This document shows, piece after piece, positions 19,601 through 56,112 of a DNA stretch of 64,000 nucleotides. The position numbers were made by a program, and so were the translations under genes. The notes beneath the pieces were generated by a model. The model was given only the letters and a program-made list of their open reading frames with translations, searched no databases and had not been told where the DNA came from. The number at the start of each line of letters is the position of its first letter. Within the stretch, counting starts at the first letter, position 1. The stretch spans positions 768,001 through 832,000 of the forward strand of contig CM000433.1 in assembly GCA_000165345.1 (NCBI GenBank), given 5' to 3'.

Positions 19601-22600
19601 AAAGGATGGTTATTATACTCTGAAGATGCAACTACTTCAACCAATACACTTGGAACTGGATCAATATTTCTAATTAAACCAGATTATCTTTTTATTGATA
19701 TTAAAAACAAGGATTTGAAATTACAAAGAAAAAGAAGAAAAGATTTTATTAATCAAAATGAGTCATACCAAAGTTATTCTGTAGAACTTTCTCTTTCAAA
19801 TTTAAATGTTACAAAACCTAAATCCAAAATTGGGATTTCTCTTTCTTTCTTTGGAAAAAGAAAGCCTTCAAAGAGTACAAAATTATACTTTTATAGAGAA
19901 TTAAAGTTTACATTGCAGAGATTAATTTCTAATTGGAACAATAACCTCAACACTATAGTTCTTTCTAAAACAGTTCGTGAGAGACAAGTTGGAGAAATAT
20001 ATTGGAACTCAAAGAATGAATTAAACAGTGATAGTAATCAAAAGGTGGAGATGCCTTGTCATCTAACTTTAATCTTGAAATTAAGCAAAGTATACCATAA
20101 TTTTGTTGTTGCTTCAGTTTGGAATATGGTTAAACATAGTAATATTATTTTAAAAAGTGGGGATTTGTTTGCAATACTGGCAAGTATATTAACATATTAC
20201 AATATCAAATATAAAGAAATTGATAGAGGAATTCGTATTTTTACTAAAAGTATTGATATTGATTCAAAATCTGAGGAATTTGAATATCAAATTGATATAT
20301 CAGTATTTTCAGGAATTAATGGTAGGATCTTAGATATTTCGGATCCATGGGCTGCAGGAAATAAGCTTGGTCAAGATCCCTATTTAAATTTAGAAAAATA
20401 TATTAATGACTGTCTACTTCCAGTTTTTGAAGATGAAATACAACAGTCTACAAATCCATATTGGGACTTTAATACAGTCTTTGAATTTGTATTCTTTAAT
20501 AAAAATAATCAGTTTGATAATATTAATAATTGTAATATAAATGAAACCATTTCTTGGAATCTAATAAGAGATTCAAATGGTAAATTAATACAGATACAAA
20601 GAAACTTACCAATACACATCATTCCAGAAAATAACTCAAATGAAACAAAAAAGCAAAAATCTCCTCACTCATTTATCCAAACAAGTTCTCGGTACGAATC
20701 TGATAATATGGAATTACCAATATATTTAATGCCATGTATTTATTTGGGAGCAGATGTATTCTATAAAGGAAAACTAATCTATTTGGATGAGAGACTAGAA
20801 ACTAATGAAATGACTAAGCATAAAGCAAATGGTGTAAGTTTGTTTATTAATTCACTTTTGAATTTAATGTTTATGGAACTATTGATTAAGCTAAAGCTTG
20901 CAACTAACGATAATTGGGTTCTAAAAGATAACTTACAGTTTTCCAAGAAAGAATCGAATATTCAAACAAATGATAATTTAGATGATTGTTCATTAATTGT
21001 TAGTAATAGTTATGCTGAAGCTCATGGAGTAACTATTAGAGATATACATAAATATAGAGATAATATCCAAAACTTTTTTCAGGCAATAATTAATAATAGA
21101 AATAATATTGAAAGATTCTTACCTTTAAAGCCAGCACCTAAACATAACACAATCTTAGAAATTTATCCAATACCAAGTTTAATTCTACAAGATATTAATG
21201 GAGAAAAAGATGAGACTCAAATTTATTTTCCTTCTTGGAGTGTAGCTGAATTTATTAAAACATTAAGAGATGAAATTATGCTCATTCAAAATAATAAAAC
21301 TAACTTATCAGAAAAAAGGAATATAAAGACTGTCATTTCTGGATATACTTGCATAATTCATGATAATAAAGAAATTGATATAGAAGAAAAGGTACTGAAA
21401 AAAGAAGATGGAATTTCATTATCTAATAATTCTTCAATTCATATCAAATTTCCTATTAGAGGAAGCCAATCATTTAAAAATGCTGATGTTGGAGAATGTG
21501 GATGGCATGTTTTGAAATATAAATCTCAAATAAAATACTTGAATTATTTATGTAATCAAACAGATTTGAACATTAACAATTGGGTGGATTCATTATATGT
21601 AATGAATAATATCTCTCCTAATATTAATAATTCGATTGGGAACAAAAATGATTTAGACTTTAACGAAATTTATGGTTCATTTTTTAATATTTCTGGTGGA
21701 AAAGAAAGACCATGTATAATAGTAAATATTCATTCAGGTAATGAAACTGAAATTGAATGTTTGATCATTCTTGAGCTTACTCCTAGTGGAATATTGATTG
21801 CATGTTGGAATGCTCCTGTTTTAATTATAAGCAGGCTTCAGAAAATGATTAAGGGATTTGTATTTGAAAGTTGTATCAAAATAATTTGGTCATTACAGTT
21901 ATCAATTTGGTACAAATATAATGTCATTTATAGAAAGCACATTTTTGTATTGGATTTGTCAAAATTTCATTTAGATTTTAAGCAAGATTCCAGTATTAAT
22001 AATAATGAATCATCAGGGTTTTCTATGATTAATAATAACTATTATCCGAGAATATGTGAGATTACCACAGATATTATTTCATATATTTGGAAGAATCAAT
22101 ATTTCAATACAAATTTGAAATGGAGTCATACTGAAGATTTGTATAAAAAGGAGCTTATGATTGAATGCAAAATTAATAGATTAAAGTTGGAGGATGTTGT
22201 AATTCCAAATATTATAATGGGAAAGATATTAGATTTGAAATTTGAAGACTTATTTGATAGAAATAATAATAAGGAATTTAATTGGTTCATTCCTTCTATC
22301 ATTAACAAAATAAGAATTTTAAATTCTGATAATTTAATGAAAAGGTGGAATAATTACTTCTTTAAATATAAATTATGGTTATTTGTTAATCAATTTTTGA
22401 TTGAATGTTTTGCAATTAAAAGTTTAAGACAAGAAATTTCTACAAAAATATTTTCAAAGAATATAATTCTTCAAGTTAGTAAAAGTAATATGATCTTTAA
22501 ATATCAACAGATTATTAATTTCTTAAAGAAGAGAGTTGAGACTTATAATATTGATTATTCAAAATATTATAAAACTTATAAAATTAATTGTCAAGAGAAA

Positions 22601-24855: not shown

Positions 24856-25181
24856 TTAATAAAAAGGATTAAAATTGAAATATTTATGGATAATTTCTTT
24901 AATACCTTCAAGATCAATTTGTTGTATTTGTTTAAGCTTATCATCAATACTGGTATAATGGTTATTGACTATTAAATCTCTACCAATTTCCTCAAATAAT
25001 GTTCCAGAATTTTCATATAATGAAGTTAATTGATATGAAAGAATTCTCTTAACTCTAATAATATCGTCTTCAGTAATTAATGAATGTAGGTTTTTAAATC
25101 GAGAGCTAATTAATTTGGCATTTTCCATAATAGCTTTGTGACTAAGATCACTATTGCTTTTAAGGTACCATCCAAATAAGC
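24856..25181 (-). CDS. MPP-beta-like peptidase, exon 2 (C-terminus)
   Basis: A 53-nt intron (25182-25234; GTAAGT…ATTATTAG) joins …YKDTG to GLFGWYLKSN…, matching the conserved M16 C-terminal YTDTGLWGLY block. The ORF track lists 24856-25128 as plus strand, but its translation is only present on the minus strand. Confidence 0.7.
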
Positions 25182-25234
25182 CTAATAATGAATTAAAAAA
25201 GAAAACTAAGAATAGGAATGAAGATATAACTTAC

Positions 25235-26333
25235 CTGTATCTTTATAACAAGTATTAAAAGTTTCAAAGAATTCAACATGGTCTTTAATACCAGAAAGAA
25301 TCCTTTCAATAATTTGGTTTTTATATCCAGTTACTCTATTAATATTATTGGTTCCATATTCCCCTAGCATACTTTGGAGAAACATAACTTTAAGAAAATC
25401 TTTGGAATTCCAAGATGTACCATTGTATGCCATAGCAAGAAGAGTCTTTCCATCACTATTGTTTTTTTTGTGTACTAATACAGGATGATTTTTATCAGAG
25501 TTAATTTCGTTCAAATATTGAGAATTGGATAAATTAATATTTTTATATCCCTTTAAACCAAGTAGATTTCTGGAGTTATTTGAATCATTTCCAAAATAAG
25601 TTTCAGCAATATTCTTAAAAGAATTATGGTCAATATTACCAACTCCTAAAATCATCATTTTCTCTGGAATATAATTAGTACGTATATAATTGATCAAATC
25701 TTCTCTTTTGAATCCAAGAATATTTTCTTTTGGACCAAGAATAGTATTTCCAAGTGGATGATTCTTATACATTTCTTTATGTAAATCATCAAAAATAATC
25801 TCTTCTTCAGATTTGCTTACTTCTTCCATTTCTCTTAAGACAACTCCTTTTTCTTGTTCAATAGCAGATTTACAAAATTTGGAGTTTTTAATAATATCAC
25901 TCAAAAGATCCATGCACTTTGGTAGGTCTTGATTAAAGCATCTGATTTGATAAACCGTTTGTTCGCGAGTAGTATATGCATTCAAATGGGCACCTAAGTC
26001 TTCAATTTGGCTTTCAATTTCTTTTCTAGATCTATTGTATGTACCTTTAAATATGAGATGTTCCAAAAAATGAGCAATCCCATTTTTTCCTGGGTCTTCA
26101 TTTCTACTTCCAGAATCTACCCATAATCCAAAAGTTAGAGAATTAGGGATACTGTCAATTCCAAACTTCATGGTTGCAACTCTCATCCCATTTGAGAGTT
26201 TGGAGATCTTTAAATCTGGATCATTTCTTTTAAAACTCAGAGTGCTGTTAAATCTTGCATATCTAGTAGGCAATACTCGTAACAAATTTGAACATCCAAG
26301 TTTTAGTATGGAGTTTTTTAAAATTAAGCTCAT
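25235..26333 (-). CDS. MPP-beta-like M16 zinc metallopeptidase (candidate mitochondrial/mitosomal processing peptidase beta subunit), exon 1
   Basis: HFLEHLIFKGT is the inverted zinc-binding HxxEH motif. The N-terminus is presequence-like (RVLPTRYARFNSTLSF). The ORF reads TGKLY into a GTAAGT donor. The MPP-beta assignment is a family-level call and cannot be separated by eye from other insulinase-like M16 peptidases. Confidence 0.6.
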
Positions 26334-27219: not shown

Positions 27220-28707
27220 ATGATGGATAATCAAATTAAGATAGAACATGGATATGGAGTTAAGAAAGCAATTGAAAGCAAGCATTTGGTTTTCTTAATG
27301 TGGATTGTACTAAGCTTAATATTTACGCTTTATTCCAAATGGTTAATGAATAATTACTTTCCTTATCCTATTACAATGTCCCTAATTCATATGATCATTG
27401 CTTCAGTTCTAAGCCATGTGTTTGGAGGTTTTGTTAATAAAAGATTTGGAGATAAATCCAGATTTTCTTCTATTGGAGAATTGAGTTTCCAAGAAAAAAA
27501 GAGTATTTTGGCTTTTAGTATAATTGTGGCACTGAATATTTGGTTCTCCAATGCCTCTTTACACTTGGTTTCCATTTCTCTTCATCAAATGGCAAGAACT
27601 ACAATTCCACTCTTCACTATGGCATTGGGTATCCTTTTTTTCAAACACAAATATAGATTGTCTCAGATTCCTCCTGTCATTTTGGTTATTGTAGGAGTAG
27701 CCATCACAGTGAATGGTACTCCAGAACTAAGTATTTATGGCTTGTTTATAGTATTCATGGGATGTTGTGTTTCTTCTTTGAAAGGAATTGTTGCTCAGAA
27801 GTTACAGGTTGAGAACCTGAAGATTAATGCAATAATTATGCTTCAATATGTTGGACCTGTTGCATCTTTAACTTTGGGATTTTTTTCAGTAATTCTTGGA
27901 GAAGCACAAAAGATATCAAAAAAAAGCGAAAATATGGATAAAATTTCATTTTTGATGACAAATGTACTGTTAATATTTGCAGGAATATTGGCTTTTGGTT
28001 TAAATATTTTAAGCCTAATGAGTTCTTCCATAGTATCACCTCTAGCTATGAATATTGCAGGTAATGTGAAGCAACTTCTGACATGTTTACTTGGATGTTT
28101 TATTTTTGGAAATACTGTAACTGATAAATTACTTTTGGGTATTTTACTAACTAGTTTGGGTGCCTTATGGTATTCTCTCGATAAGCAAAAGGATTCTGGT
28201 AAGAAAAAAGTCAGGTATGTAAAGGGAAGGTATATTGATAGGGTTGGACTGGGAATTCCAAATGAAATGGGCACCCCACACAATAAAAGGGTTAACAACA
28301 AAAATCCTAGCTTAGAATCTATTGAGATTAAACAAATTGGGGATTGTAATAAAACCCAAATTGTTCAGATATCCAAAGAATCAGAAAGTCATCTAGAAGA
28401 AGATGTTATTCTTGAGCTTACTAACCAAATAGATGGAACTGAAATTAGCCTTGAAGATGATCACCATATCTCTTCTAAAGAAGTAAGTTGTTACCTAAAG
28501 ATGGAAAGTATTATAGAAGAGGAGGAATGCCAAGAAATTCAAGTCAATTTAGAGCCTGAGGGCTTAGAGGAGGTCGATAATGGAGATTATACTTTTAAAA
28601 AAATAGCAGATTTAAACAATAATATGGATATTATAGTTTTGGAGTCTGGCGCCAAAAGTTCACAAAATTTGGATGAGAATAGAGATTATAGTAACATTCA
28701 GAGTTAG
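27220..28707 (+). CDS. triose-phosphate / nucleotide-sugar transporter family (TPT/SLC35, DMT superfamily) with an acidic C-terminal tail
   Basis: About 10 TM helices in the first 300 aa with TPT-like spacing, then a hydrophilic tail of about 180 aa rich in E/D/S. Confidence 0.55.
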   Translation: MMDNQIKIEHGYGVKKAIESKHLVFLMWIVLSLIFTLYSKWLMNNYFPYPITMSLIHMIIASVLSHVFGGFVNKRFGDKSRFSSIGELSFQEKKSILAFSIIVALNIWFSNASLHLVSISLHQMARTTIPLFTMALGILFFKHKYRLSQIPPVILVIVGVAITVNGTPELSIYGLFIVFMGCCVSSLKGIVAQKLQVENLKINAIIMLQYVGPVASLTLGFFSVILGEAQKISKKSENMDKISFLMTNVLLIFAGILAFGLNILSLMSSSIVSPLAMNIAGNVKQLLTCLLGCFIFGNTVTDKLLLGILLTSLGALWYSLDKQKDSGKKKVRYVKGRYIDRVGLGIPNEMGTPHNKRVNNKNPSLESIEIKQIGDCNKTQIVQISKESESHLEEDVILELTNQIDGTEISLEDDHHISSKEVSCYLKMESIIEEEECQEIQVNLEPEGLEEVDNGDYTFKKIADLNNNMDIIVLESGAKSSQNLDENRDYSNIQS

Positions 28708-38200: not shown

Positions 38201-40851
38201 CTCATTGTCAGGAATCTTTATCAATATTGCTGGAGAGAAATCCTATCAAGAGCAAGACACTTTTATTGAATCCATGCCATTCAAAGTGTTTTATGATTGT
38301 AGCTGGACGACTTGGATCTTCACTACAAAGATTCGGACAGCTAGCGTTGGATCCACAATCTGAATCTTTAGGGCTTCTGCTTAGACATTATTCCAGACAT
38401 TTTTGTGTAAAGAACTCAAAAGGACAATCTTGTGGACCATTATTATTTGCAGGTGCATCTTTTGCTTTGGAAGCTTCTCTCTCTCATAAGCAGAATTTTG
38501 GAAAAGAAACTCAAACAAAAAATACAAACTTAACTAAAGGAGAAAAGATAAATGTTTCTGGATTTGGATTACAAGATCAAAACGAAGGAGGAATGGAAAT
38601 TAATGCATCAGAATTTGAAAATTTTAGCAGAAATTCTCATTTAAGCAGAGAAATCAACAAGGATAACTCAATTGTTGGATTCCAAGCACACAAAATGGAG
38701 AATTATTGTAGCAATGGATGCTTTAGTTATTATGTTGGAGATGGAATGTGTGATTTACAATGTTTTAATGAAGCCTGTAACTGGGATAGAGGAGACTGCC
38801 AATCTTCTTCAATGTATCCTGAAATTTATCAGCCTTTGGAGGATCTTTTTAAGGGATGTCTTGCAGGATCATCCTCAAAGTCAAGCGGAACAAGACAAGG
38901 AGGAACATGTTCCACAACTTGCAGAGCAAGATACTCCATTTTGGCAGAAACTTTGGGTTGTTGTACTTCAGTTGCTGTCGACTTGTATCAATCTCTAACA
39001 CAGTTATTAGACGACCAACCACATGGAGGAGGATCTTCAATTTCAGGAGAGCCATTTTCCTCATCTTTGAATTCAATGTGGTCCATTTCGCGACTTGAGC
39101 AAATGTGTGGTATGAGTTTAGATAGAACATGCTCAGATGGTCTTCCGAGAATACAAACAAGGATGACCTTGGCTTTGGACCATCCAGATTTAGGCTTGTC
39201 TGATGACCCTCAGACTCCCTTGGCAGTTTCAAGAATAGTTAGTAGAAGTCTTGGAATTTTGGATTCTGATATTAAAAAGGTATTCTTTACTAACAATGCT
39301 CCTTATTCTAGTGCAGACTACAAAGAATTTAAGTTTTTGGTGGACATAGTAATTGATACAGGATCAACCGAGCTGATTGATATGGATGAGAGGTTGCTAC
39401 TAGAAGGACAAATGAATAAGTTACAAAGAAAATGGGGACTAGACTTTTGTTATGAACTTGGGGATTCAAATGGCGAAGAATGTAGAGTTAAAGTGTTTGA
39501 AGTTGTTTCAGAGCCTATTTCCTCTTTAGGTATTTCTAATTCCACAGCTCCTGAATTGCCATGGATGAATTCAATAGGGTTTTCTTACTTAAATAAAGAC
39601 TTACCTTCTGAACCATGTTCTATTAATCATCAGTATCTACAAGATGCAAGTAGGTACAGAGTAGTACCTATTTCAAGTCAATCCACTTCTTCATCTGTAT
39701 TCACCTCCTCAACAGGGTATGGAACTTCAAATAATTACAAGTCAATGAGTCATGGATCCAAATTCTCAATTTCTTGTACAAATAATAACTATTCTCCTTC
39801 AACAGGAAGATCACCAGATACTTTAACATGTAACAATGGAAGGTGGGAGACTTCTTCTGGTCTTAGATGTAACAGAAAATGTTTGTCACTTCCAGATCTT
39901 CCAATTGGTCTTAAATTCAAAGAAAACTTGGCTATGCTTGGATTAAAGAAGGAACAGGGTCAAATGATAAATCATGGATTTAAAGCTCAGGTTGAATGCT
40001 TCTCTGATGACTATAGAAGCACATCGGCTATCATAGAGGATACTATTCAATGCATAGATGGAATTTGGACTACTCCTAGATTAGAATGCAGAAAATCTTG
40101 TACAAACTTAACTAGTACAAGTCTGGGATCCAGTAGTACTGTTGTTGGAAGAGAGTATAGACATAATGATCAAAGAAAAGTATTTTGTAGTGATGATCAC
40201 TATCTATCTCCAAAATCTGGTAAAACTACCGTTCCAAGCCATTCAAAATTATCTCAAGATAAAAAAGATCAATTAAAAACTAGTAAAAATAGTAATTCAA
40301 TTATACAACAGGAGCAATTACACATTTCCAAAAGTTATAAAGGTATTACAACGCTTGATGAGGCTATTAGAAGAGGATATTACTTAATAAGTTGTAATGA
40401 TGGAACTTGGGAATCTGAACCTTTAATATGTGTTAAAGGTACCTTAACAGATTTCAGTAATATTAAAAGAGGTATAGAGATAACTATGACTCACATCTTC
40501 TCAATTAAAACTTTGATTGCTTGTATTGTAATCGTCTCTACTATATTCATTATTATCATTGGAATTTGGCTTGCTTGGATATTTAGATATAAAAGACAGA
40601 CTGAAATTTATGATATGGACCATCTTGAGAGAGTTGAGAATGCTAGAAGGGTGCTTCTTCAGCTTTCTGGTATTGGATATACAGAAAATATGAGTTATGA
40701 TCAGACTACAGAAAATTCGAATATGATCATACAAGGTCAAGATAGGCTTTCAAATCATATTTCCTCGCCTCCTTCTTCCTCCTGGGAAAGTCTTAATAAT
40801 TTTATTGATCAAGGGAATAATATTGGGAGTAATACAGGAAAAACTACCTAA
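29242..40851 (+). CDS. giant (3869 aa) type I membrane protein: signal peptide, ~13 TSP1 repeats, ShKT-like + LNR (Notch) cassettes, Sushi/CCP modules, TM helix, cytoplasmic tail
   Basis: Signal peptide MNKIKLLAYILWIFQAFLEITEG. Repeated WSxWSxCSxTCGxG TSP1 motifs lie at 29641-32300. LNR consensus C-x2-WF-xGN-x2-CD-x2-CNN-x2-C-xFDDGDC occurs six times. ShKT-like C-xD…C…C…CPxTCxxC modules recur. C-terminal Sushi-like modules include SCTNNNYSPSTG…CNNGRWETSSGLRC. The TM helix is LIACIVIVSTIFIIIIGIWLAWIF (about 40500-40580), with a 90-aa tail. Confidence 0.8.
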   Translation: MNKIKLLAYILWIFQAFLEITEGVVKKVPIVSSSGLVCEDNPSVAESGYSCSFLARRFGGFLGCEKLLKDLAQDSLPPGIPGNTRVVDACPSSCNKCRECSPGCALWFIGNGVCDPECDNLSCQFDGGDCWKVDCKLSAWSSWSACSVTCGPGGRVTRTRQIVVSPRNGGETCGALKAEETGCNSHIPCPLSCTVSEWGNWSRCSLTCGIGHQMRERSVIKAPKDQNLFQCPETRQIRECIQDTCSSNCTLGEFKFKSAVSGSPCLMEKGCVERREILHPPFKPELGNFTCKVEERPSDCLGLHLGCPGPCEFSEWSGWSLCSYYKNEGLGFDDEASKYKLLKKRRRVARRRMRDANCEDELEYKECDESERHGVEALVRCNMGDWSSWSSCSTSCGLGSRLRARWLLSEPENEEALSENLINSESVCGPLFQTKACNDRSCLTEGCKVSDWGQWSACSSKSCNFPGLSKRQRSVISLPRKGDCPVLEESRDCLGACDHSVSVSKSNCMFGDWSSWSTCQDDCYTRYNNSSGANRSEKEKPKRYRHKMIIFNPKDKDCSKENEYLEVENCEGGCENANVEICQVSEWGPWSSCSANCDGGSRRRIRERINSGRGVGKAGSRPLTRGVSSSCPSLLEVEKCNTHPCEYSCELSPWYSNSKKSTGPQDRRGNRSDAMLEDERNEDIVISDCSTKCGIGVVERSRRILSGGFVISSNEEQNQYTSKVCGPLKDTIKCVRISEGCSVDCQVGEWSSWSACSKSCGEGFQNRSRELLVPSLGRKCELATEELRECFERPCPSSCQVSPWSEWTMCLGGCDEKPYKRRERKILEAPAPGQNCLALEEKVDAEEECPRIERCPSDCKVGEWSSWSECDAKCGIGVEKRLRKVVKRESKGGAPCPNLEDLRPCSREACKSDCVLGEWTEWGVCSKSCGGGARSRVREVISQPNEGKECEFLKEFEPCNEFQCIATRDCEVGQWSVWSPCSASCGGGVKRRQREVQVPATGGGRCEFELNQKVGCNGFKCPGEPCIDRPEAQEVVPCSILKAMFGCQKRLIDVAKSNGVPYPDDRPPEARIMDGCPATCGMCVECAPGCQLRDVGNLSCDPACNNAACRFDDGDCEKNSPQKASCILPKLPEAFLFLSKKEDQVRKGNGSDFLEIGGNSNSGKKEAQNILKDSSDNNLVVLESFTSQSSLNSSSGKSNNYGFAGNQAQMQVHEMEFSQEDYNNERHGNDGSNTIREYKKGDTVYIRCDKGKRFRKYTAIPYFKYQCKESGFIQLIEPKGAPLLYVDGDGIPRIPTCEEDECPYLMAQEAPQMIGTVNTLYKRDLSHSYTYIMYRDIGEPIFITGDHQRIILGPVGTLYLISIDSFYPEFGDPSFEKYRLWSLVDISQQKIIQEFVELKLVCVKNPNSLNSNLMSTNSTTDSEIVKASFNRPLRFLSQVYSNSNLSSRIIDFKASDEVPDFGRNLQEKPYTYVMGKKRFCEDQPEVKEQGILCETLSTMCDINIPNPQNYGLPENSFVWQICPSTCNKCKECSAGCPEWFKGNTVCDKACNNEACNFDDGDCKGVQSEQDDNEIQGKDSERNDIESEHKNRNYHEKNNIKDDQGDEDSREFTSNIVIPEGAVTYFAGKFRNCTDIPELIDSLASCKALKQTCQLKLPLSASSLEAGLSHSSTISQVCPKTCGICEECAPGCPKWFIKNGYCDVNCQNPECQFDGGDCSDDNITRNPKLPIKSPNDSDISSGSTSNSYQNSSASKNNNSGKNSCKDNPIIFEVFNRSCEELKTSFGCSINLEKIIQTGTKLPDRIKPGTKLKELCKLTCKNCSNKKDDDRITGIGKNDQTNKNADIKTERPYTIIFNEKRYCEDQPEVAKKGISCKNLSSMCNASIPGAKTYGLPDGTPIWRVCPSTCNKCKECSAGCPEWFKGNTVCDKACNNEACNFDDGDCKGVQSEQNDNEIQGKDNESSAGRKEGYEIDSNGIIKENRGSDERNGSYKGSDLDREFFSMLKEKGQECRDDPQVEELSGFSCEQITSIFDCSTLLKDLPGSSIPDDIPKNTLLRHACADSCGLCEAFSNDKKSIGKEKDEKDHPESRVCKDDVYISYVTGRCRDIMNFSVNLSEVCNESLSERTVLRDNRKSSTFSMNRKVYDHCPRSCGRCRSECDDDSRLQPGECRIAIETASIQGYGCDMPLLQVSFSLAERFGDEKEYLLLSDVCARSCNYCSPSQGGLGTDQLLDNRSSESFCSIKSTKHWGNGYLLDLKSSITQEDGLETEVTGILLNQEKNKETHSAMGGSKLIVSCSSGYSSSDKQDSVEAICDTKSSIYILPETFKCEEPHVEVMQVEMEIEEASDLDFTAVSSIYTALYSTLPVYQPNGLRIEAISTTRFENILGDGQQDIKCEDQNHQLKSFGINCSMLKPFCSKTLEELAKQFNRSIPDGVSADIKVSIACPVTCDNCQEFLEVLNNLRNEEKEEQEDEEEKEKDSKVSEVQANNSEGRRSRQNGSQAIGKSGLGSLYILFDVGFFLSSSRGRESSFEAALKDKNISKRFVATLKTQFASRGVRLAPKEFDIRSWDSQQAVVSNSRLASDDTADRNMKSKFKRHRMIRILKSDWDKFYSGQKGVGMDEEARNLFYTSGVSMPLIRSSRFGAKEIVFLKRPLHYLQNAYLACGGKGISSSSPISLSSTNQFSYSVKGRTSGYSDPENSCCGLPQDFRTVLINEGCGSLIYDRVPDKIQMDLFCRGTSSGRTSCFLRFQEVINRYKNRKGPLCNTIEYAQQLIDSWCYTTTISEAQEGLEKENGIQDTGADLDSRINSISDSNSDSSPKSGSRLDSGSSSNSESQGENNKSDLSGYTKLGKETGREYCFSSIKETISIGMDSQEFVSAAFNIFKSRCRPESCYRNHLRYFDAVTQLHTAWGYPLPSSPLKKSDFFTGSNRPIISSVGTNTGNIESEGVTGSSPNSSTYSNLEVLLEESNESWLDLLCTSTSSGTHCQESLSILLERNPIKSKTLLLNPCHSKCFMIVAGRLGSSLQRFGQLALDPQSESLGLLLRHYSRHFCVKNSKGQSCGPLLFAGASFALEASLSHKQNFGKETQTKNTNLTKGEKINVSGFGLQDQNEGGMEINASEFENFSRNSHLSREINKDNSIVGFQAHKMENYCSNGCFSYYVGDGMCDLQCFNEACNWDRGDCQSSSMYPEIYQPLEDLFKGCLAGSSSKSSGTRQGGTCSTTCRARYSILAETLGCCTSVAVDLYQSLTQLLDDQPHGGGSSISGEPFSSSLNSMWSISRLEQMCGMSLDRTCSDGLPRIQTRMTLALDHPDLGLSDDPQTPLAVSRIVSRSLGILDSDIKKVFFTNNAPYSSADYKEFKFLVDIVIDTGSTELIDMDERLLLEGQMNKLQRKWGLDFCYELGDSNGEECRVKVFEVVSEPISSLGISNSTAPELPWMNSIGFSYLNKDLPSEPCSINHQYLQDASRYRVVPISSQSTSSSVFTSSTGYGTSNNYKSMSHGSKFSISCTNNNYSPSTGRSPDTLTCNNGRWETSSGLRCNRKCLSLPDLPIGLKFKENLAMLGLKKEQGQMINHGFKAQVECFSDDYRSTSAIIEDTIQCIDGIWTTPRLECRKSCTNLTSTSLGSSSTVVGREYRHNDQRKVFCSDDHYLSPKSGKTTVPSHSKLSQDKKDQLKTSKNSNSIIQQEQLHISKSYKGITTLDEAIRRGYYLISCNDGTWESEPLICVKGTLTDFSNIKRGIEITMTHIFSIKTLIACIVIVSTIFIIIIGIWLAWIFRYKRQTEIYDMDHLERVENARRVLLQLSGIGYTENMSYDQTTENSNMIIQGQDRLSNHISSPPSSSWESLNNFIDQGNNIGSNTGKTT
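29641..32300 (+). other. array of ~13 thrombospondin type-1 (TSP1) repeats inside the giant adhesin
   Basis: Repeated (W)SxWSxCSxTCGxGxxxRxR…C…C motifs, e.g. WSSWSACSVTCGPGGRVTRTR, WSSWSSCSTSCGLGSRLRAR, WSSWSACSKSCGEGFQNRSR, WSVWSPCSASCGGGVKRRQR. Confidence 0.8.
33640..35133 (+). repeat. tandem intragenic duplication (two ~350-nt copies about 1143 nt apart) of a ShKT-like + LNR cassette
   Basis: 33833-33929 and 34976-35072 are identical over about 97 nt, followed by about 50 nt with 3 mismatches. The flanks are only about 65-70% identical. The encoded peptides differ by a few residues. Confidence 0.85.
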
Positions 40852-41155: not shown

Positions 41156-42427
41156 TTAATTCCTCATAGTTTGTCTATAAATGCTTGGATACTTGTCTCT
41201 AAGCCATTTAAGTTTATCACAATTAGGTTTACTTCTATTTTGGATTTCTTTTAATTTACTTTTACTTTGATAGTACTTTGCATAGGCAATATCCTGCAAT
41301 ATAGTTCTTTCTTCTACACTACATTCTCTAGTAAAGTGAATAATCTCTATCTTAACTTCCAGCTCATGCAGTTTCGAAGAGTTTGGTGGAAACTTTGAAT
41401 CGAAGTTTGCCTTAGGATTTGTGTAAAATCCAACATTGTGTATTCCTGTCCATCTTTGTTTGCTGTATTCTCTAGTCCTATTAAAGCTGTAAATTGGTTT
41501 ATCTTCAGGAAACAAAGTTGGCATAAAGTTACCCATAATGGCCAAAAATAGCATTAATAAGACTGGAAGTATTTGAATAATACCTGCTATTTTTTGCCAT
41601 ATTGGTCCTGTATGTAATCCATCAGATGTTGCTCCTCCTGAATTCATATTTGTTGTATAAGTTCTATTGTGAGATCTTGAGTGTCCACTTCTATTTGGAA
41701 ATCTTTGTCTATTAAATGATACTTCTGCAGGCATACCTCCAAAAAACATCCTAAATAAATCTTCAGGTGTAAGGAACCCATCACCTTGATGATATTGATA
41801 ATACCTAACATCACCAGAAGCTGAATGCATTGGCGGTCCATCTTCTCCAAAAGTATCATAGTTCTTACGTTTCTCTGCATCAGACAAAGTCTGGAATGCT
41901 AGAGCAATTCTTTTGAATGCTTCTTCTGCACTTGGAGCCTTACATTTATCAGGATGGAGTTGTAGTGCTAATTTCTTATATGCTTTCTTAATTGCAGCAT
42001 CATCTGCATCTTTTGGTACTCCTAAAGTGTCATAAAAGTTTTTTGCTTTTAAGATACGTTTACACATACTTTCTGAGCTCTCTGATGCAGAACCTGAACT
42101 AAAATTTGATCTTGCTGAATGTGAATTACGAGAATCATCGTCCTCATTTCGCTTCTTTCCTTTAGATGAGTGGTTATGCATATTTTTTGGAGATGATGCT
42201 TTATGACTATGGTGATGGGTATGATGAGTCTGGTGATGATTATGTTGTGCTTCTGGAGTACTTGAACCACAAGATTTTAGATTAATGAGCATCTCTGTTA
42301 TTGTTTGGCTGGGATACATTCTATTAGCCTTTTCCAATAACCTTTTAGCCTTATCTAGGTCCCCTCCATGAATAGCTTTCTTAGCTAACATTACACATCT
42401 ATCGGCCTCTTCTTTATTGCTATCCAT
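41156..42427 (-). CDS. DNAJB12/DNAJB14-like ER-membrane J-protein (J-domain + TM + DUF1977-type C-terminal domain)
   Basis: J-domain YDTLGVPKDADDAAIKKAYKKLALQLHPDKCK with intact HPD. His/Ser-rich linker. Single TM (IAGIIQILPVLLMLFLAIMG). Conserved C-terminal domain as in Hlj1/DNAJB12. Confidence 0.75.
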   Translation of the reverse strand: MDSNKEEADRCVMLAKKAIHGGDLDKAKRLLEKANRMYPSQTITEMLINLKSCGSSTPEAQHNHHQTHHTHHHSHKASSPKNMHNHSSKGKKRNEDDDSRNSHSARSNFSSGSASESSESMCKRILKAKNFYDTLGVPKDADDAAIKKAYKKLALQLHPDKCKAPSAEEAFKRIALAFQTLSDAEKRKNYDTFGEDGPPMHSASGDVRYYQYHQGDGFLTPEDLFRMFFGGMPAEVSFNRQRFPNRSGHSRSHNRTYTTNMNSGGATSDGLHTGPIWQKIAGIIQILPVLLMLFLAIMGNFMPTLFPEDKPIYSFNRTREYSKQRWTGIHNVGFYTNPKANFDSKFPPNSSKLHELEVKIEIIHFTRECSVEERTILQDIAYAKYYQSKSKLKEIQNRSKPNCDKLKWLRDKYPSIYRQTMRN

Positions 42428-53131: not shown

Positions 53132-53147
53132 TTTTTTGGCGCCAAAT
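53132..53147. promoter_or_regulatory. palindromic E2F-like TTTTTTGGCGCCAAAT
   Basis: About 80 nt upstream of the GrpE ATG. The same intergenic region also serves the divergent MFS gene. Confidence 0.5.
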
Positions 53148-53225
53148 ATGTGTAAGGACAGATTGAGCGGTAATATTATGTACTATTACTAAGCCTTTAA
53201 TAACCAAGCAAAAGTAGCAGATAAA

Positions 53226-53930
53226 ATGCTGCCTTTTCTCACCCTAGCAAGGAATTTGGGAGCCGGATCAGTAAGGGTGGGTTTGGTGAGTAATTTCTCT
53301 AAGGGTCAACTATTTTTTGTTGGAAAAAATCTGTTGAAAAATTTGGGTACAAGGGCTATATCAAGCAAGTCAAAGCCGACATCAGTTTGCGAAGAAGAGG
53401 AAAGAGCAATTTTGGAGGCAGAGGTTGCAAAGATTGGAGTTCTTCAGGAAAGAATTAAGACCCTTGAGAAGGATGCAAGTGGTTATATTCATAAAATAGA
53501 AGAATCTAAGGAAAAACTGTTACGTTCACTAGCAGAAAATGAGAATTTAAGACAAAGGCATAGGAAAGACTTAGAAGCAGCAAGAGAATACTCAATTTCA
53601 GGCTTTGCTAAAAGTCTTTTGGATGTCTCTGATAGCCTTTCCAGAGCCTTATTGTCCGTAGATATTGAAAATGTAGATAAAAATTCAATCAAAAGTTTAT
53701 ATAATGGAATTAGCATGACATATTCGTCATTAGAAAAGGTTTTTGAAGCACACGGTATTAAGAGATTCCAATCTTTAGGAAAACAATTTAATCCAAAAGA
53801 GCATGAAGCCGTATTTGAAGTTAAGGATACATCTAAGCCAAAAGGCCAAGTTTGTGAGGAGCTCTTGCCTGGGTACAAGATCCATGATAGAGTCCTCAGA
53901 GCTGCAAAGGTTGCTACCATTAAGAATTGA
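53226..53930 (+). CDS. MGE1: GrpE nucleotide-exchange factor (Mge1-like, organellar Hsp70 co-chaperone)
   Basis: Presequence-like N-terminus (MLPFLTLARNLGAGSVRV). The GrpE core includes LRQRHRKDLEAAREYSISGFAKSLLDVSD and a C-terminal HDRVLRAAKVATIKN (GrpE signature G.RVLRPA.V). Confidence 0.8.
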   Translation: MLPFLTLARNLGAGSVRVGLVSNFSKGQLFFVGKNLLKNLGTRAISSKSKPTSVCEEEERAILEAEVAKIGVLQERIKTLEKDASGYIHKIEESKEKLLRSLAENENLRQRHRKDLEAAREYSISGFAKSLLDVSDSLSRALLSVDIENVDKNSIKSLYNGISMTYSSLEKVFEAHGIKRFQSLGKQFNPKEHEAVFEVKDTSKPKGQVCEELLPGYKIHDRVLRAAKVATIKN

Positions 53931-54000
53931 TCAGTTTCTTCCCATTCTGTTGTTAATTATTTTCAAGCATTATTTTAAATTAATTTTTTTTTAATTTGAG

Positions 54001-54012
54001 TTGGCGCTGAAA
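54001..54012. promoter_or_regulatory. E2F-like TTGGCGCTGAAA
   Basis: About 75 nt upstream of the Pam18 ATG. Confidence 0.4.
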
Positions 54013-54086
54013 TTTATCATTTATTAATTAGCCTTGCGATTCTCAGAGGTAGACCAAATAAAATGTGAATATGAAAGTAAAGAAAA

Positions 54087-54428
54087 ATGATATGGCCATT
54101 TTTAATGATAACTGCAGGAGCTAGTCTTGTAATTGCAAGAGGAACGCCTATATTAGCTAGGAGAGCTGGATTCTTTTCTCGGAATATGATCAGGCCTTTG
54201 GCAGGATCAACGGGGAAGTTTCCTTTAAAACTCAAGGGATTTGAGAACCCAATGAGTATTAGGGAGGCTTACAAGATATTGAATGTACCTCCGATTGCAT
54301 CGAAAGCGAGAGTTAGAGAAGCCCACAGACAGCTAATGCTAAGGAACCACCCAGATAATGGAGGCTCTAACTATGTTGCCTCCAAAGTTAATGAGGCAAA
54401 AGAATTAATTTGTGGGGATAAAGATTAA
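54087..54428 (+). CDS. PAM18: Pam18/Tim14 (DNAJC19-like) import-motor J-protein
   Basis: N-terminal TM anchor. The C-terminal J-domain is REAYKILNVPPIASKARVREAHRQLMLRNHPDNGGSNYVASKVNEAKELI, which matches Pam18 closely. Confidence 0.8.
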   Translation: MIWPFLMITAGASLVIARGTPILARRAGFFSRNMIRPLAGSTGKFPLKLKGFENPMSIREAYKILNVPPIASKARVREAHRQLMLRNHPDNGGSNYVASKVNEAKELICGDKD

Positions 54429-54668
54429 TCACTAGTTGTAGGTTTAACATTTTCCGGGGAAACAAGTACTTTGCATTAGTTTGGCACAATTTACAGGGAA
54501 GGAGGATTTTTAGAATCTTGCACCTTAAAATTAATATAGTTATTGTTTTTAATTCATATATAATCTCACAATCCTTCAGTTTTAAATATTTGTTTTTAAT
54601 TTTATTTCAACATTCGCTCTTTTATTTAACTTATTTTTTTTTTTTTTTTTGGGGTTGCATCTTGAAAA

Positions 54669-54681
54669 TTTGGGCGCCTGG
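54669..54681. promoter_or_regulatory. E2F-like TTTGGGCGCCTGG, preceded by a T17 tract and GGGG
   Basis: About 50 nt upstream of the J-like gene ATG. The poly(dT) tract is at 54634-54650. Confidence 0.4.
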
Positions 54682-54726
54682 ATTTTGTAATAAACTAGAA
54701 TAAAAATTCAAAGCAAACTTTGTGAA

Positions 54727-55257
54727 ATGCCAGGAAGCACATATATTGAAAAGATCAAAACACATTATGATACATTGGAATTAAAGAAAGATTGCTCTAA
54801 AGAGGATATATGTAGGGCGTATATGAGGCTTGCATTAGAATGGTATCCCGATGGAAATAGATCGGATACAGAACTAAAGGGTACAATGTTTAAAAAGATC
54901 TCAAATGCATACCAAATACTCTCAAATGACGAATTGAGACGCAAATATGATTCTAGCATTGATGAGCTCATCAAAAAAAACAGCTCTGAAATGAATCAGA
55001 ATTTAAATTTTGATCCATATGAAGTTTTTGAGAAATTTATGACAGAAGTACTGGCAGATAAAGAAAAGTATTATCAGTATTCTTCCCCATGTAATGGTGG
55101 ATTTTACATTCATTCAAATTCGGATTTTAACTCTGATTCTGATATTGAATTCGGATTGGATGGAGACGAAAAAGACGCCAATATTAATGATGATCTTTTC
55201 ACAGAAGATGAAGATATTGAATATTGTGATGATTATCATTATAGAAACACCTTTTAA
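54727..55257 (+). CDS. J-like domain protein with degenerate HPD (YPD) and an acidic C-terminal tail
   Basis: HYDTLELKKDCSKEDICRAYMRLALEWYPDGNRSDTELKGTMFKKISNAYQILSNDELRRKYD has full J-domain architecture, but the catalytic His is Tyr. The C-terminus is DDLFTEDEDIEYCDDYHY. Confidence 0.6.
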   Translation: MPGSTYIEKIKTHYDTLELKKDCSKEDICRAYMRLALEWYPDGNRSDTELKGTMFKKISNAYQILSNDELRRKYDSSIDELIKKNSSEMNQNLNFDPYEVFEKFMTEVLADKEKYYQYSSPCNGGFYIHSNSDFNSDSDIEFGLDGDEKDANINDDLFTEDEDIEYCDDYHYRNTF

Positions 55258-55877
55258 ATTATCCAAAATTAAACTTCAAACACACAAATGTATTTTTTGT
55301 CCTAAATTATACCAAATATCTTTATTTTTGTATGTATAATAAAGATCAGCTCAATATCCTCAATATAAGTGTAGGATAACTTGAAACCACATCTTTAAAG
55401 TATATGTTGGTAAAAAAACAAGAATTTATATAAACTGGTTAATTTGTAATTGGTAATAAGTTGATTAGAACTCAAACATAGTTCAAAGAATTCATATATT
55501 TACTCTTTCAACAAAAAACGGATGTTTGGGAATTTTCTATTACAAATACTTAGTAGATATTTATCGACAGCTTTAAAGCTAAAAGGAAAAAAATGATCAA
55601 TTTAATCAATTATTCAATGTTCAAAGAAATCTAGCTAGACTTTTATATTTGGAAGTTATCTATTTTTGACATTTTGGATAGATAATCTTCTTTATATAGC
55701 TGAACCTGATTAAATTTATGCTTTGGGTCATTTAATAGGTCACTTAAGGTAATTTCAGCAGCAACTTGTTGTACTTTTTGGCAGCATTGGATCTAAAAGT
55801 GGGAATAAAAAAAAAATCAATGAGTAAGTTGATGTCTTGTAATAATAGCGCAGATAGAAGATTTATCAACTTTTCAA

Positions 55878-56112
55878 TTAATGTTCTTCCTCCAGCTAAA
55901 GAAAAAATTTCAGTAATGTGACTAGCCAGTCACTATGAGCGACTTACAATTTTATGAATTTGGATTTTCATGGAAAATGAAGATAAATAAGAATCGTAAG
56001 CAGTACCCTCCAATGTTGAAATCTGACTCTGTTCAATGATTCGATTCATATTATCCACCATTTTGCTTATACAATCATTCACAGTTTCCTTGCAGCGTGT
56101 CCTTGCACTCAT
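55878..56112 (-). CDS. candidate small protein (about 60 aa), possibly two exons with a 52-nt intron at 55896-55947
   Basis: Minus-strand ATG at 56112 encodes MSARTRCKETVNDCISKMVDNMNRIIEQSQISTLEGTAYDSYLSSFSMKIQIHKI. A GTAAGT donor and a TTTTCTTTAG acceptor would add LEEEH*. A CAGCGCGCGCGG box sits about 45 nt upstream. Below the 60-aa cutoff of the ORF track. Confidence 0.3.

Follow-up and report, generated by a model that had tools for sequence, protein, structure and literature searches.

Mitosomes of the Cryptosporidium kind import proteins by way of an mtHsp70 motor that includes Pam18 and Mge1, and process them with MPP. The closest described counterparts of the genes considered here are yeast Mge1 and human GRPEL1, yeast Pam18/Tim14 and human DNAJC19, and, for the peptidase, Mas1, PMPCB and the MPP-beta of Toxoplasma complex III. 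Yeast Pam18 carries an intermembrane-space domain before its anchor, which is missing from human DNAJC19. Two further groups bear on the comparison, namely Pam16/Tim16, which has no functional HPD tripeptide, and the 'Type IV' Hsp40s, a set described in Plasmodium whose J-domains carry a corrupted HPD and which forms a descriptive class but no clade. Bacterial grpE-dnaK-dnaJ operons encode an exchange factor of Hsp70 and a J-protein side by side and in the same orientation. Among the papers available, our literature search found no gene table of the C. parvum import machinery naming the genes described below; according to PMC12691609, a C. parvum hyperLOPIT data set includes a mitosome class.

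The window analyzed is a stretch of 64,000 nucleotides on C. parvum chromosome 5 that holds genes cgd5_3310 to cgd5_3560. Its open reading frames match C. parvum proteins exactly, which supports the suggestion of the earlier note that the DNA comes from a mitosome-bearing organism, and RT-PCR primers published for cgd5_3310 to cgd5_3560 (Mauzy 2012) map onto it in gene order. The identifiers of the GrpE and Pam18 genes (cgd5_3510 and cgd5_3520) were taken from this primer matching, and cgd5_3400 was assigned to MPP-beta by position. We took cgd5_3360 to be adenylate kinase, an identifier then confirmed by primer matching. Public records for C. parvum already contain these genes, and in C. felis the Pam18 orthologue is annotated as TIM14.

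As the earlier note had described, the genes for GrpE, Pam18 and a J-protein lie head-to-tail on the plus strand, each with a GGCGC-core box. They are separated by spacers of 156 bp (GrpE-Pam18) and 298 bp (Pam18-J-protein). The features of the locus and of the MPP-beta gene are as follows.

53134-53147, no strand assigned: E2F-like box TTTTGGCGCCAAAT with palindromic TGGCGCCA core, 87-88 bp upstream of the start codon of GrpE
53226-53930, plus strand: GrpE/Mge1 homologue cgd5_3510, 234 aa (Pfam, PDB match, primer matching)
53999-54012, no strand assigned: E2F-like box AGTTGGCGCTGAAA, 84 bp upstream of the start codon of Pam18, within the GrpE-Pam18 spacer
54087-54428, plus strand: Pam18/Tim14 (DNAJC19-type) cgd5_3520, 113 aa (Pfam, PDB match, primer matching)
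54669-54682, no strand assigned: E2F-like box TTTGGGCGCCTGGA, about 53-54 bp upstream of the J-protein ATG
54727-55257, plus strand: Cryptosporidium-restricted J-protein cgd5_3530, 176 aa (Pfam, PDB matches, species comparison)
24856-25181, minus strand: MPP-beta exon 2 (splicing, PDB alignment)
25182-25234, minus strand: MPP-beta intron, 53 nt, GTAAG...TTAG, whose splicing restores a single 1425-nt frame
25235-26333, minus strand: MPP-beta exon 1, with a presequence-like N-terminus and HFLEH at residues 88-92

We have good confidence in the reading that GrpE and Pam18 are separately promoted, neighbouring housekeeping genes encoding co-chaperones of the mitosomal Hsp70 motor, that the third gene stands outside this machinery, and that the adjacency reflects collinearity of the surrounding block. 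The arrangement is an ordinary one of already annotated genes in inherited synteny. The analysis shows the identities of the proteins, the positions of the motifs, the synteny, the drift of the HPD and the correlations in expression, and from these the mitosomal location and biochemical roles of the products are inferred.

The GrpE reading frame matches the Pfam GrpE family (PF01025) at 9.3e-48 and 162.5 bits over model positions 6-163 of 165, that is, as a full-length domain, and is identical to the C. parvum 'co-chaperone GrpE' EAZ51309.1. Like yeast Mge1 and human GRPEL1 it has a full GrpE domain, and human mitochondrial GRPEL1 is its closest solved relative (3e-28), ahead of the bacterial GrpE of Geobacillus (3e-22) and E. 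coli (1e-14); as an mtHsp70 exchange factor, cgd5_3510 is predicted from its sequence. In a large search, the closest sequences outside Cryptosporidium were unnamed metagenomic GrpE of bacterial type with a similar score (about 1e-27), so that sequence cannot by itself separate a 'mitochondrial' from a 'bacterial' GrpE. The mitochondrial assignment is also based on the gene being nuclear, in an organism without a plastid. Cryptosporidium has no plastid and eukaryotic cytosolic Hsp70s use exchange factors other than GrpE, established knowledge on which a plastid or cytosolic paralogue was rejected. The N-terminus is an acid-free extension of 55 residues, with the first Asp/Glu at position 56 and charges of +3/-0 in the first 30 residues by a simple composition check.

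Pam18 (cgd5_3520) has an N-terminal hydrophobic segment followed by a C-terminal J-domain with an HPD tripeptide (...LRNHPDNGGS...). The reading frame matches Pfam DnaJ at 1.4e-7 and the Pam16 family at 1.5e-5, the latter at 25.4 bits and below the cut-off of 30.3. In the PDB its best match is yeast TIM14 (2guz_A, 5e-13, 52.5 bits), to which it aligns over residues 51-108, with Ydj1 following at 24.2 bits. Cgd5_3520 thus resembles yeast Pam18/Tim14 and human DNAJC19 in its small size, its predicted membrane anchor and the C-terminal position of its HPD J-domain, TIM14 having a 28-bit margin over generic J-domains; at 113 aa it is too short to carry an intermembrane-space domain in front of the anchor. 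The hydrophobic segment spans residues 2-19 (IWPFLMITAGASLVIARG) and is borderline, with a maximum 19-residue Kyte-Doolittle mean of 1.58. By a crude composition test the N-terminus is acid-free for 52 residues, the first acidic residue being at 53.

The MPP-beta-like gene that had been placed 28 kb away is present at its coordinates, but is here corrected to a minus-strand gene with one intron and a product of 474 aa. It matches Pfam Peptidase_M16 (5e-48, 163.2 bits) and M16_C (4e-15, 56.7 bits), and the spliced protein aligns across the exon junction (...tcykdtglfgwyl...) with its best PDB match, the putative M16 family peptidase 9g9t_D (8.5e-85). The score against human beta is 2.7e-73, and yeast beta (1e-71) is far ahead of yeast alpha (1.2e-32). 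A distal Glu (LREMEE) follows the HFLEH zinc motif by 76 residues, with the ligands of the yeast enzyme as the reference for the spacing. These matches identify cgd5_3400 as a beta subunit, not an alpha subunit or core protein, and align it with Mas1, PMPCB and the Toxoplasma complex III protein in both M16 domains, in HFLEH plus distal Glu and in the strong preference for beta over alpha. C. parvum is not known to have complex III, in which MPP of apicomplexans is normally found. The N-terminus has no acidic residue before position 38 by the same crude composition test.

From what is known of the PAM motor, the N-terminal hydrophobic segment would hold Pam18 at the inner-membrane translocase, where its HPD J-domain would cause mtHsp70 to hydrolyze ATP on precursors as they arrive. 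GrpE would release ADP and reset the Hsp70 after the Pam18 step, and MPP-beta, encoded 28 kb away on the opposite strand, would cleave presequences. Membership in the import pathway, as proposed for all these proteins, is upheld by sequence tests for GrpE, Pam18 and MPP-beta, but not for the third gene, which encodes a cytosolic-type J-protein.

Adjacency of GrpE and Pam18 was found in six of six other Cryptosporidium loci examined, or seven counting the window. The order TM490, GrpE, Pam18, (J-protein), Med22-like, BRF1, GLTP, NOL1 is kept in C. felis, C. bovis, C. ryanae, C. muris and a Logan Cryptosporidium sp., and a 1.8 kb contig of C. serpentis covers GrpE followed by Pam18 only. The synteny comparison that had been suggested thus showed adjacency in every Cryptosporidium locus examined, but the entire surrounding block was equally collinear. 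We attribute the persistence of the adjacency to the collinearity of the block as a whole and not to a dedicated regulatory unit. In Neospora and Vitrella the adjacency is absent and Pam18 has other neighbours; the pair is therefore not an inherited operon remnant, and a descent from bacterial operons was rejected on these grounds. The locus is like grpE-dnaK-dnaJ operons in that an Hsp70 exchange factor and a J-protein are encoded next to each other in one orientation, and unlike them in that the genes here are eukaryotic and have separate promoter motifs. The adjacency probably arose in the Cryptosporidium lineage.

Two chance estimates were made for this arrangement. For a class of about 15 import and maturation genes in a genome assumed to hold about 3,900, P is about 0.05 for a single adjacent pair and about 0.01 for three members within 12 genes, values that make chance an uncomfortable explanation for this narrow class, itself chosen after the fact. 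With the 37-54 predicted mitosomal proteins (PMC3044749) as the class, chance would place two members next to each other in 33-53% of genomes.

The boxes upstream of the three genes are instances of a promoter element that is generic in C. parvum. This E2F box is the commonest upstream motif of the species and has no particular expression pattern; it is over-represented upstream in 163 of 200 expression clusters, which hold 2,379 genes (PMC3734150). In the window, TGGCGC occurs 21 times against 2.1 expected, a count that no shuffle reached, and 23 of the 33 GGCGC/GCGCC cores fall in non-coding DNA, which makes up 23% of the window. About 12 of the 24 window genes have an E2F box upstream, and none was found upstream of MPP-beta, BRF1 or NOL1. 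C. felis has boxes 71-72 bp upstream of GrpE, 75-76 bp upstream of Pam18 and 54-55 bp upstream of the J-protein gene. In C. muris and C. serpentis no GGCGC-type box was found upstream of these genes, although the adjacency is kept.

Expression was compared using published RT-PCR data from four time courses (Mauzy 2012), as the mean r per gene pair. GrpE and Pam18 have a mean r of 0.75, the second highest among 55 local gene pairs, next to 0.77 for GrpE-NOL1 and 0.72 for Pam18-NOL1. Each of the two correlates with BRF1 at r 0.68, and the J-protein gene correlates with GrpE and Pam18 at r 0.33 and 0.46. The RT-PCR signal of GrpE is about 50-fold above that of Pam18.

One alternative to separate promotion is that GrpE and Pam18, perhaps together with the J-protein gene, are transcribed as one polycistronic mRNA with E2F motifs between the open reading frames. 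Such transcripts, of 2-4 genes each, have been reported in C. parvum (n = 201), with this motif in the inter-ORF UTRs in 160 of 201 (10.1101/2025.01.17.633476), and the shared strand, the short spacers and the E2F motif in each spacer of the present locus are consistent with them. However, only about 11% of C. parvum genes (423) sit in such transcripts, and functional enrichment among polycistron genes was not found (10.1101/2025.01.17.633476). In addition, the 50-fold difference in signal points to mostly separate transcripts, primer efficiency aside. We consider a polycistronic origin unlikely. If true, two co-chaperones acting on one mitosomal Hsp70 would be synthesized in a coupled manner, a eukaryotic parallel to the logic of bacterial grpE-dnaJ operons, with a de novo origin in the Cryptosporidium lineage.

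A second alternative, that selection keeps GrpE, Pam18 and the J-protein gene together for shared E2F-type control and matched expression of mitosomal import, appears quite improbable. In its favor are the adjacency at all seven Cryptosporidium loci, the upstream boxes that C. parvum and C. felis share at conserved distances from the three genes, the GrpE-Pam18 correlation across four time courses and the nominal adjacency P within the 15-gene class. However, the unrelated genes of the block are just as collinear, the larger mitosomal class (PMC3044749) makes a chance pair common, and C. muris and C. serpentis keep the adjacency with no such box found upstream. The profile of the J-protein gene is different, and the gene is dispensable in two species. 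The co-regulation suggested for the cluster is not supported by these results, as the box is generic and missing from MPP-beta, and GrpE and Pam18 correlate with each other no better than with the unrelated, box-less NOL1 and BRF1. Separately promoted genes in a collinear block remain our preferred reading.

The third gene was examined by domain, structure and species comparisons. In cgd5_3530 an N-terminal J-domain with YPD is followed by the helix DPYEVFEKFM and by an acidic tail (DANINDDLFTEDEDIEYCDD) that is disordered. It had been called a degenerate J-like protein; the HPD tripeptide indeed reads YPD, but the remaining J-domain matches the whole Pfam model (DnaJ, PF00226, 3.3e-19, 69.2 bits, model positions 1-63 of 63). 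The best PDB matches are cytosolic DNAJA1, B8, B2 and B6, with neither TIM14 nor TIM16 (2guz chains) among 45 matches, and there was no Pfam match to Pam16 (PF03656) at E<=0.01. The J-domain begins at residue 12, the first acidic residue is at 8 and the first 30 residues carry +6/-6; no presequence or hydrophobic anchor was detected (maximum Kyte-Doolittle mean -0.35). A D-P-Y/F-x-x-F motif follows the J-domain, as is typical of the G/F region in class A/B J-proteins. The AlphaFold2 model was poor (six-sequence alignment, mean pLDDT 51.7, pTM 0.37) and was used for helix boundaries only.

Across the genus, the tripeptide varies: C. parvum (with the codon TAT), C. meleagridis and C. felis have YPD, and other species have SPD, CPD or HPE; HPD is intact in C. 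canis and in C. muris, whose tail differs. The protein has 176 aa in C. parvum, C. ubiquitum, C. canis and three Logan-derived Cryptosporidium sequences, and 173 aa in C. felis. A pseudogene was rejected, as the reading frame is intact and 74 alignment columns are invariant. At the syntenic gaps of C. bovis (458 bp) and C. ryanae (437 bp) the gene is absent, with no tblastn match, yet both species retain Pam18 and GrpE. An exhaustive search of 1.84 billion representatives gave 21,180 generic J-domain matches, among which only the C. felis cluster fell below 1e-30, and no orthologue was detected outside Cryptosporidium. The HPD thus appears to be under relaxed constraint, with loss of the gene in one clade, and the protein would act, if at all, most likely via its conserved acidic C-terminal motif and not by Hsp70 activation. 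It resembles the 'Type IV' Hsp40s in having a J-domain that is complete by sequence with a non-HPD tripeptide and in the expected absence of Hsp70 ATPase stimulation, and differs from them in being confined to one genus and in the variation of its HPD state among species.

A role as an import-motor J-like protein, as previously suggested, is contradicted by the missing Pam16 signal, the cytosolic PDB relatives, the lack of a presequence and the loss in two species. That the gene is a lineage-specific Pam16 substitute regulating Pam18 in the mitosome is highly improbable: it adjoins Pam18 and, in C. parvum, has lost HPD as have Pam16/Tim16-type proteins, but it has neither sequence signal (Pam16 Pfam, TIM16/TIM14) nor targeting features (presequence, hydrophobic segment), its tail is acidic, the motif after its J-domain is of the class A/B kind, the orthologues in C. 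muris and C. canis still have HPD, and C. bovis and C. ryanae dispense with it while keeping Pam18 and GrpE.

The picture of mitosome biogenesis is unchanged by the present findings. What may be new is the GrpE-Pam18 adjacency at every Cryptosporidium locus examined and its absence from two relatives outside the genus, and the pair as a reasonable candidate among the reported C. parvum polycistrons. The J-protein provides, inside a single genus, a clean natural example of HPD drift (H, Y, C, S; D to E) combined with gene loss, which could interest researchers working on J-protein evolution.

The window has a G+C content of about 31% and few introns. The RT-PCR primers that Mauzy et al. (2012, PMC3305300, Table S2) published for genes cgd5_3310 to cgd5_3560 map on it in order, which identifies the region as part of Cryptosporidium parvum chromosome 5 and provides the gene identifiers listed here. 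The open reading frame coordinates of an earlier note agreed exactly on re-reading, and exact C. parvum protein matches were found for all three products of the plus-strand genes, which are separated by spacers of 156 and 298 bp.

Genes of the GrpE region and the M16 peptidase gene (window coordinates)
53226-53930, plus strand, GrpE, cgd5_3510 (primer mapping)
54087-54428, plus strand, Pam18-like gene, cgd5_3520 (primer mapping)
54727-55257, plus strand, third gene encoding a J-protein, cgd5_3530 (primer mapping)
BRF1, cgd5_3540 (primer mapping)
24856-26333, minus strand, M16 peptidase (MPP-beta), cgd5_3400 (identified by position)
25182-25234, minus strand, MPP-beta intron, 53 nt (GTAAG...TTAG), removal of which gives a single 474-codon frame

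GrpE, Pam18 and MPP-beta had been read as organelle proteins, and their domains and nearest solved relatives agree with this. GrpE (234 aa) has a complete GrpE domain (9e-48) and human mitochondrial GRPEL1 as its top solved relative (3e-28), with bacterial GrpE behind. The Pam18-like protein (113 aa) has a hydrophobic segment at its N-terminus followed by a J-domain with HPD; its top solved match is yeast TIM14 (2guz_A, 52.5 bits, with the generic J-domain ranked next at 24.2 bits), and the C. felis orthologue carries a TIM14 annotation. The spliced M16 peptidase contains both M16 domains and an HFLEH motif (residues 88-92) that is followed 76 residues later by a Glu. Its top PDB match is 9g9t_D, a putative M16 family peptidase (8.5e-85), and it is far closer to human (2.7e-73) and yeast MPP-beta (1e-71) than to yeast alpha (1.2e-32). 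By a check of composition, as distinct from a trained targeting predictor, the N-terminal stretch free of acidic residues spans 55 residues in GrpE, 52 in Pam18 and 37 in MPP-beta; unrelated neighbors such as BRF1, GLTP and NAC have one no later than positions 4-15. Cryptosporidium has no plastid and, to our knowledge, eukaryotic cytosolic Hsp70s do not use GrpE; together with family membership, this suggests that all three proteins reside in the mitosome. As to localization data, PMC12691609 cites a hyperLOPIT data set that includes a mitosome class. A further eukaryote-like GrpE (276 aa, 46% identical) was observed on a 3.3-kb contig (L005, Logan SRR23274242), where its neighbors are DUF1751 and an uncharacterized 84-aa gene, not Pam18.

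The third gene had also been assigned to the import motor, wrongly. The J-domain of its 176-aa product covers the whole Pfam model (3e-19), the Pfam search returned no Pam16-family match, and its 45 PDB matches, headed by the cytosolic DNAJA1, DNAJB8, DNAJB2 and DNAJB6, included neither TIM14 nor TIM16. The J-domain begins at residue 12, leaving no space for a presequence, and no hydrophobic segment was found in the sequence. A predicted DPYEVFEKFM helix follows the J-domain; class A/B J-proteins typically carry a D-P-F-x-x-F element of this kind. The C-terminus is a disordered acidic tail with a motif, NDDLFTEDED, invariant among the intestinal species aligned, and the C. muris tail is basic and unrelated to it. 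In an exhaustive search of 1.84 billion representatives, the sole relative below 1e-30 was a C. felis cluster, all other matches being generic J-domain similarity.

Sites bearing on the third gene, and nearby genes
54844-54846, HPD site of the C. parvum J-protein, codon of residue 40, Y (TAT), reading YPD
L001 6367-6823 (C. bovis locus) and L008 5364-5799 (C. ryanae locus), site of the missing J-protein gene
~55643-56112, minus strand, small two-exon gene between the J-protein gene and BRF1 (exon 1 ~56112-55942, exon 2 ~55792-55646)
41156-42427, minus strand, further J-protein (DnaJ + DUF1977), cgd5_3430, 11 kb upstream of GrpE

At the HPD position of this J-protein, C. parvum, C. meleagridis and C. 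felis have YPD, C. ubiquitum has CPD, one Logan-derived species SPD and another species HPE; C. canis and the C. muris gene that is orthologous by position have an intact HPD. The flanking W and the P are fixed between species, the D mostly so. Since stimulation of the Hsp70 ATPase needs an intact HPD, this drift suggests that the protein is losing its Hsp70-activating role. C. bovis and C. ryanae both lack the gene at the syntenic position: Pam18 is there followed directly by a Med22-like gene, only 458 and 437 bp away, respectively, and tblastn found no trace of the J-protein in either gap. The protein is therefore genus-restricted and dispensable, and does not belong to a universally conserved import motor. 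Counterparts of the small two-exon gene between the J-protein gene and BRF1 are present in C. felis, C. bovis and C. ryanae, the product of the C. bovis gene giving a weak Pfam Med22 match; no GGCGC box was found in the 257 bp that the gene in the window has in common with BRF1. Three J-domain genes of three different kinds lie within 14 kb in the window, including cgd5_3430, whose domain combination is characteristic of DNAJB12/14-like proteins of the ER membrane.

Pam18 comes directly after GrpE in C. felis, C. bovis, C. ryanae, a Logan Cryptosporidium species and the gastric C. muris and C. serpentis, so that synteny in relatives holds for all Cryptosporidium loci examined but does not extend to Neospora, where Pam18 is flanked by a ubiquitin-conjugating enzyme and Cox11, or to Vitrella, where its neighbors are unrelated. 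On sufficiently long contigs the entire block is collinear (490-aa membrane protein, GrpE, Pam18, the J-protein gene where present, Med22-like gene, BRF1, GLTP and NOL1-type methyltransferase), and conservation of the GrpE-Pam18 junction is therefore nothing special. With 15 "import and maturation" genes among about 3,900, our assumed C. parvum gene total, random placement gives at least one adjacent pair in ~5% of cases and a 12-gene span holding three of them in ~1%, which is weak evidence because the gene class was chosen post hoc. These values rise to 33-53% and 20-42% if the class is enlarged to the 37-54 mitosomal proteins whose prediction is quoted in PMC3044749. The likeliest explanation of the adjacency is a lineage-specific chance event kept by general collinearity.

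The E2F-like motif is genuine: the window contains 21 copies of TGGCGC where 2.1 are expected, and of its 33 GGCGC-type cores, 23 fall in non-coding DNA, which makes up 23% of the window. As the earlier note had claimed, GrpE, Pam18 and the J-protein gene each have their own box, with a GGCGC core 53-88 bp 5′ of the ATG, at nearly equal distances in C. parvum and C. felis. Such boxes precede about half of the window genes (e.g., Der1, V-ATPase d, cyclophilin, adenylate kinase, NAC, 5′-nucleotidase, GLTP), and no GGCGC-type box was found upstream of MPP-beta, BRF1 or NOL1. Oberstaller et al. (2013, PMC3734150) examined 200 expression clusters and found E2F-like motifs over-represented upstream of the genes of 163 of them, which together contain 2,379 genes, without a particular expression pattern. 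In C. muris (L006 4237-6729) and C. serpentis (L004), both of which keep the GrpE-Pam18 adjacency, no box of the GGCGC, GCGCC or CGCGC type was found 5′ of the three genes; gastric and intestinal species of Cryptosporidium may differ in their use of the E2F box. Elsewhere in the window, a second giant ORF (3869 aa, 29242-40851), locally G+C-richer (up to 0.42) with a strong GC skew of 0.33, lacks a box in the 500 bp that precede it; ~590 bp 5′ of its ATG, at 28647-28654, there is a perfect TGGCGCCA box, which falls within the 3′-terminal part of the transporter ORF (cgd5_3410). Its promoter may thus overlap the preceding transporter gene.

Expression of 11 local genes was compared over four RT-PCR time courses of seven points each, taken from Table S1 of Mauzy et al., a data set that does not include MPP-beta; the comparison is indicative rather than genome-wide. 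GrpE and Pam18 correlate with a mean r of 0.75, ranking second of 55 pairs, which is equivalent to their pairings with NOL1 (0.77 for GrpE, 0.72 for Pam18) and BRF1 (0.68 for each). The common profile is flat or slightly elevated through 24 h and then falls to a minimum at 72 h; that of the J-protein differs (r = 0.33 and 0.46), being almost silent at 2 h and up at 6 h. Given the generic box, the block-wide collinearity and the equal correlation with NOL1 and BRF1, the suggested co-regulation of import genes finds no support. A 2025 preprint (10.1101/2025.01.17.633476) describes 201 C. parvum polycistronic transcripts of 2-4 genes each, the majority of which carry an E2F motif between their ORFs, in the spacer, and GrpE-Pam18, with or without the J-protein gene, has the same anatomy; however, the RT-PCR signal of GrpE is ~50 times that of Pam18, which argues for mostly separate transcripts; a shared one is improbable. 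MPP-beta is flanked by two late-stage genes in the Mauzy RT-PCR tables: cgd5_3390, a 3709-aa ORF (13691-24820) rising ~2- to 17-fold from 48 to 72 h, and cgd5_3410, of the triose-phosphate-transporter family (27220-28707), close to zero at the early time points and high from 48 to 72 h.

The genes and the pathway of GrpE, Pam18 and MPP-beta are already known. Only two items are mildly new for Cryptosporidium: the presence of the GrpE-Pam18 junction at every locus examined in the genus, and the drifting HPD of the neighboring J-protein.
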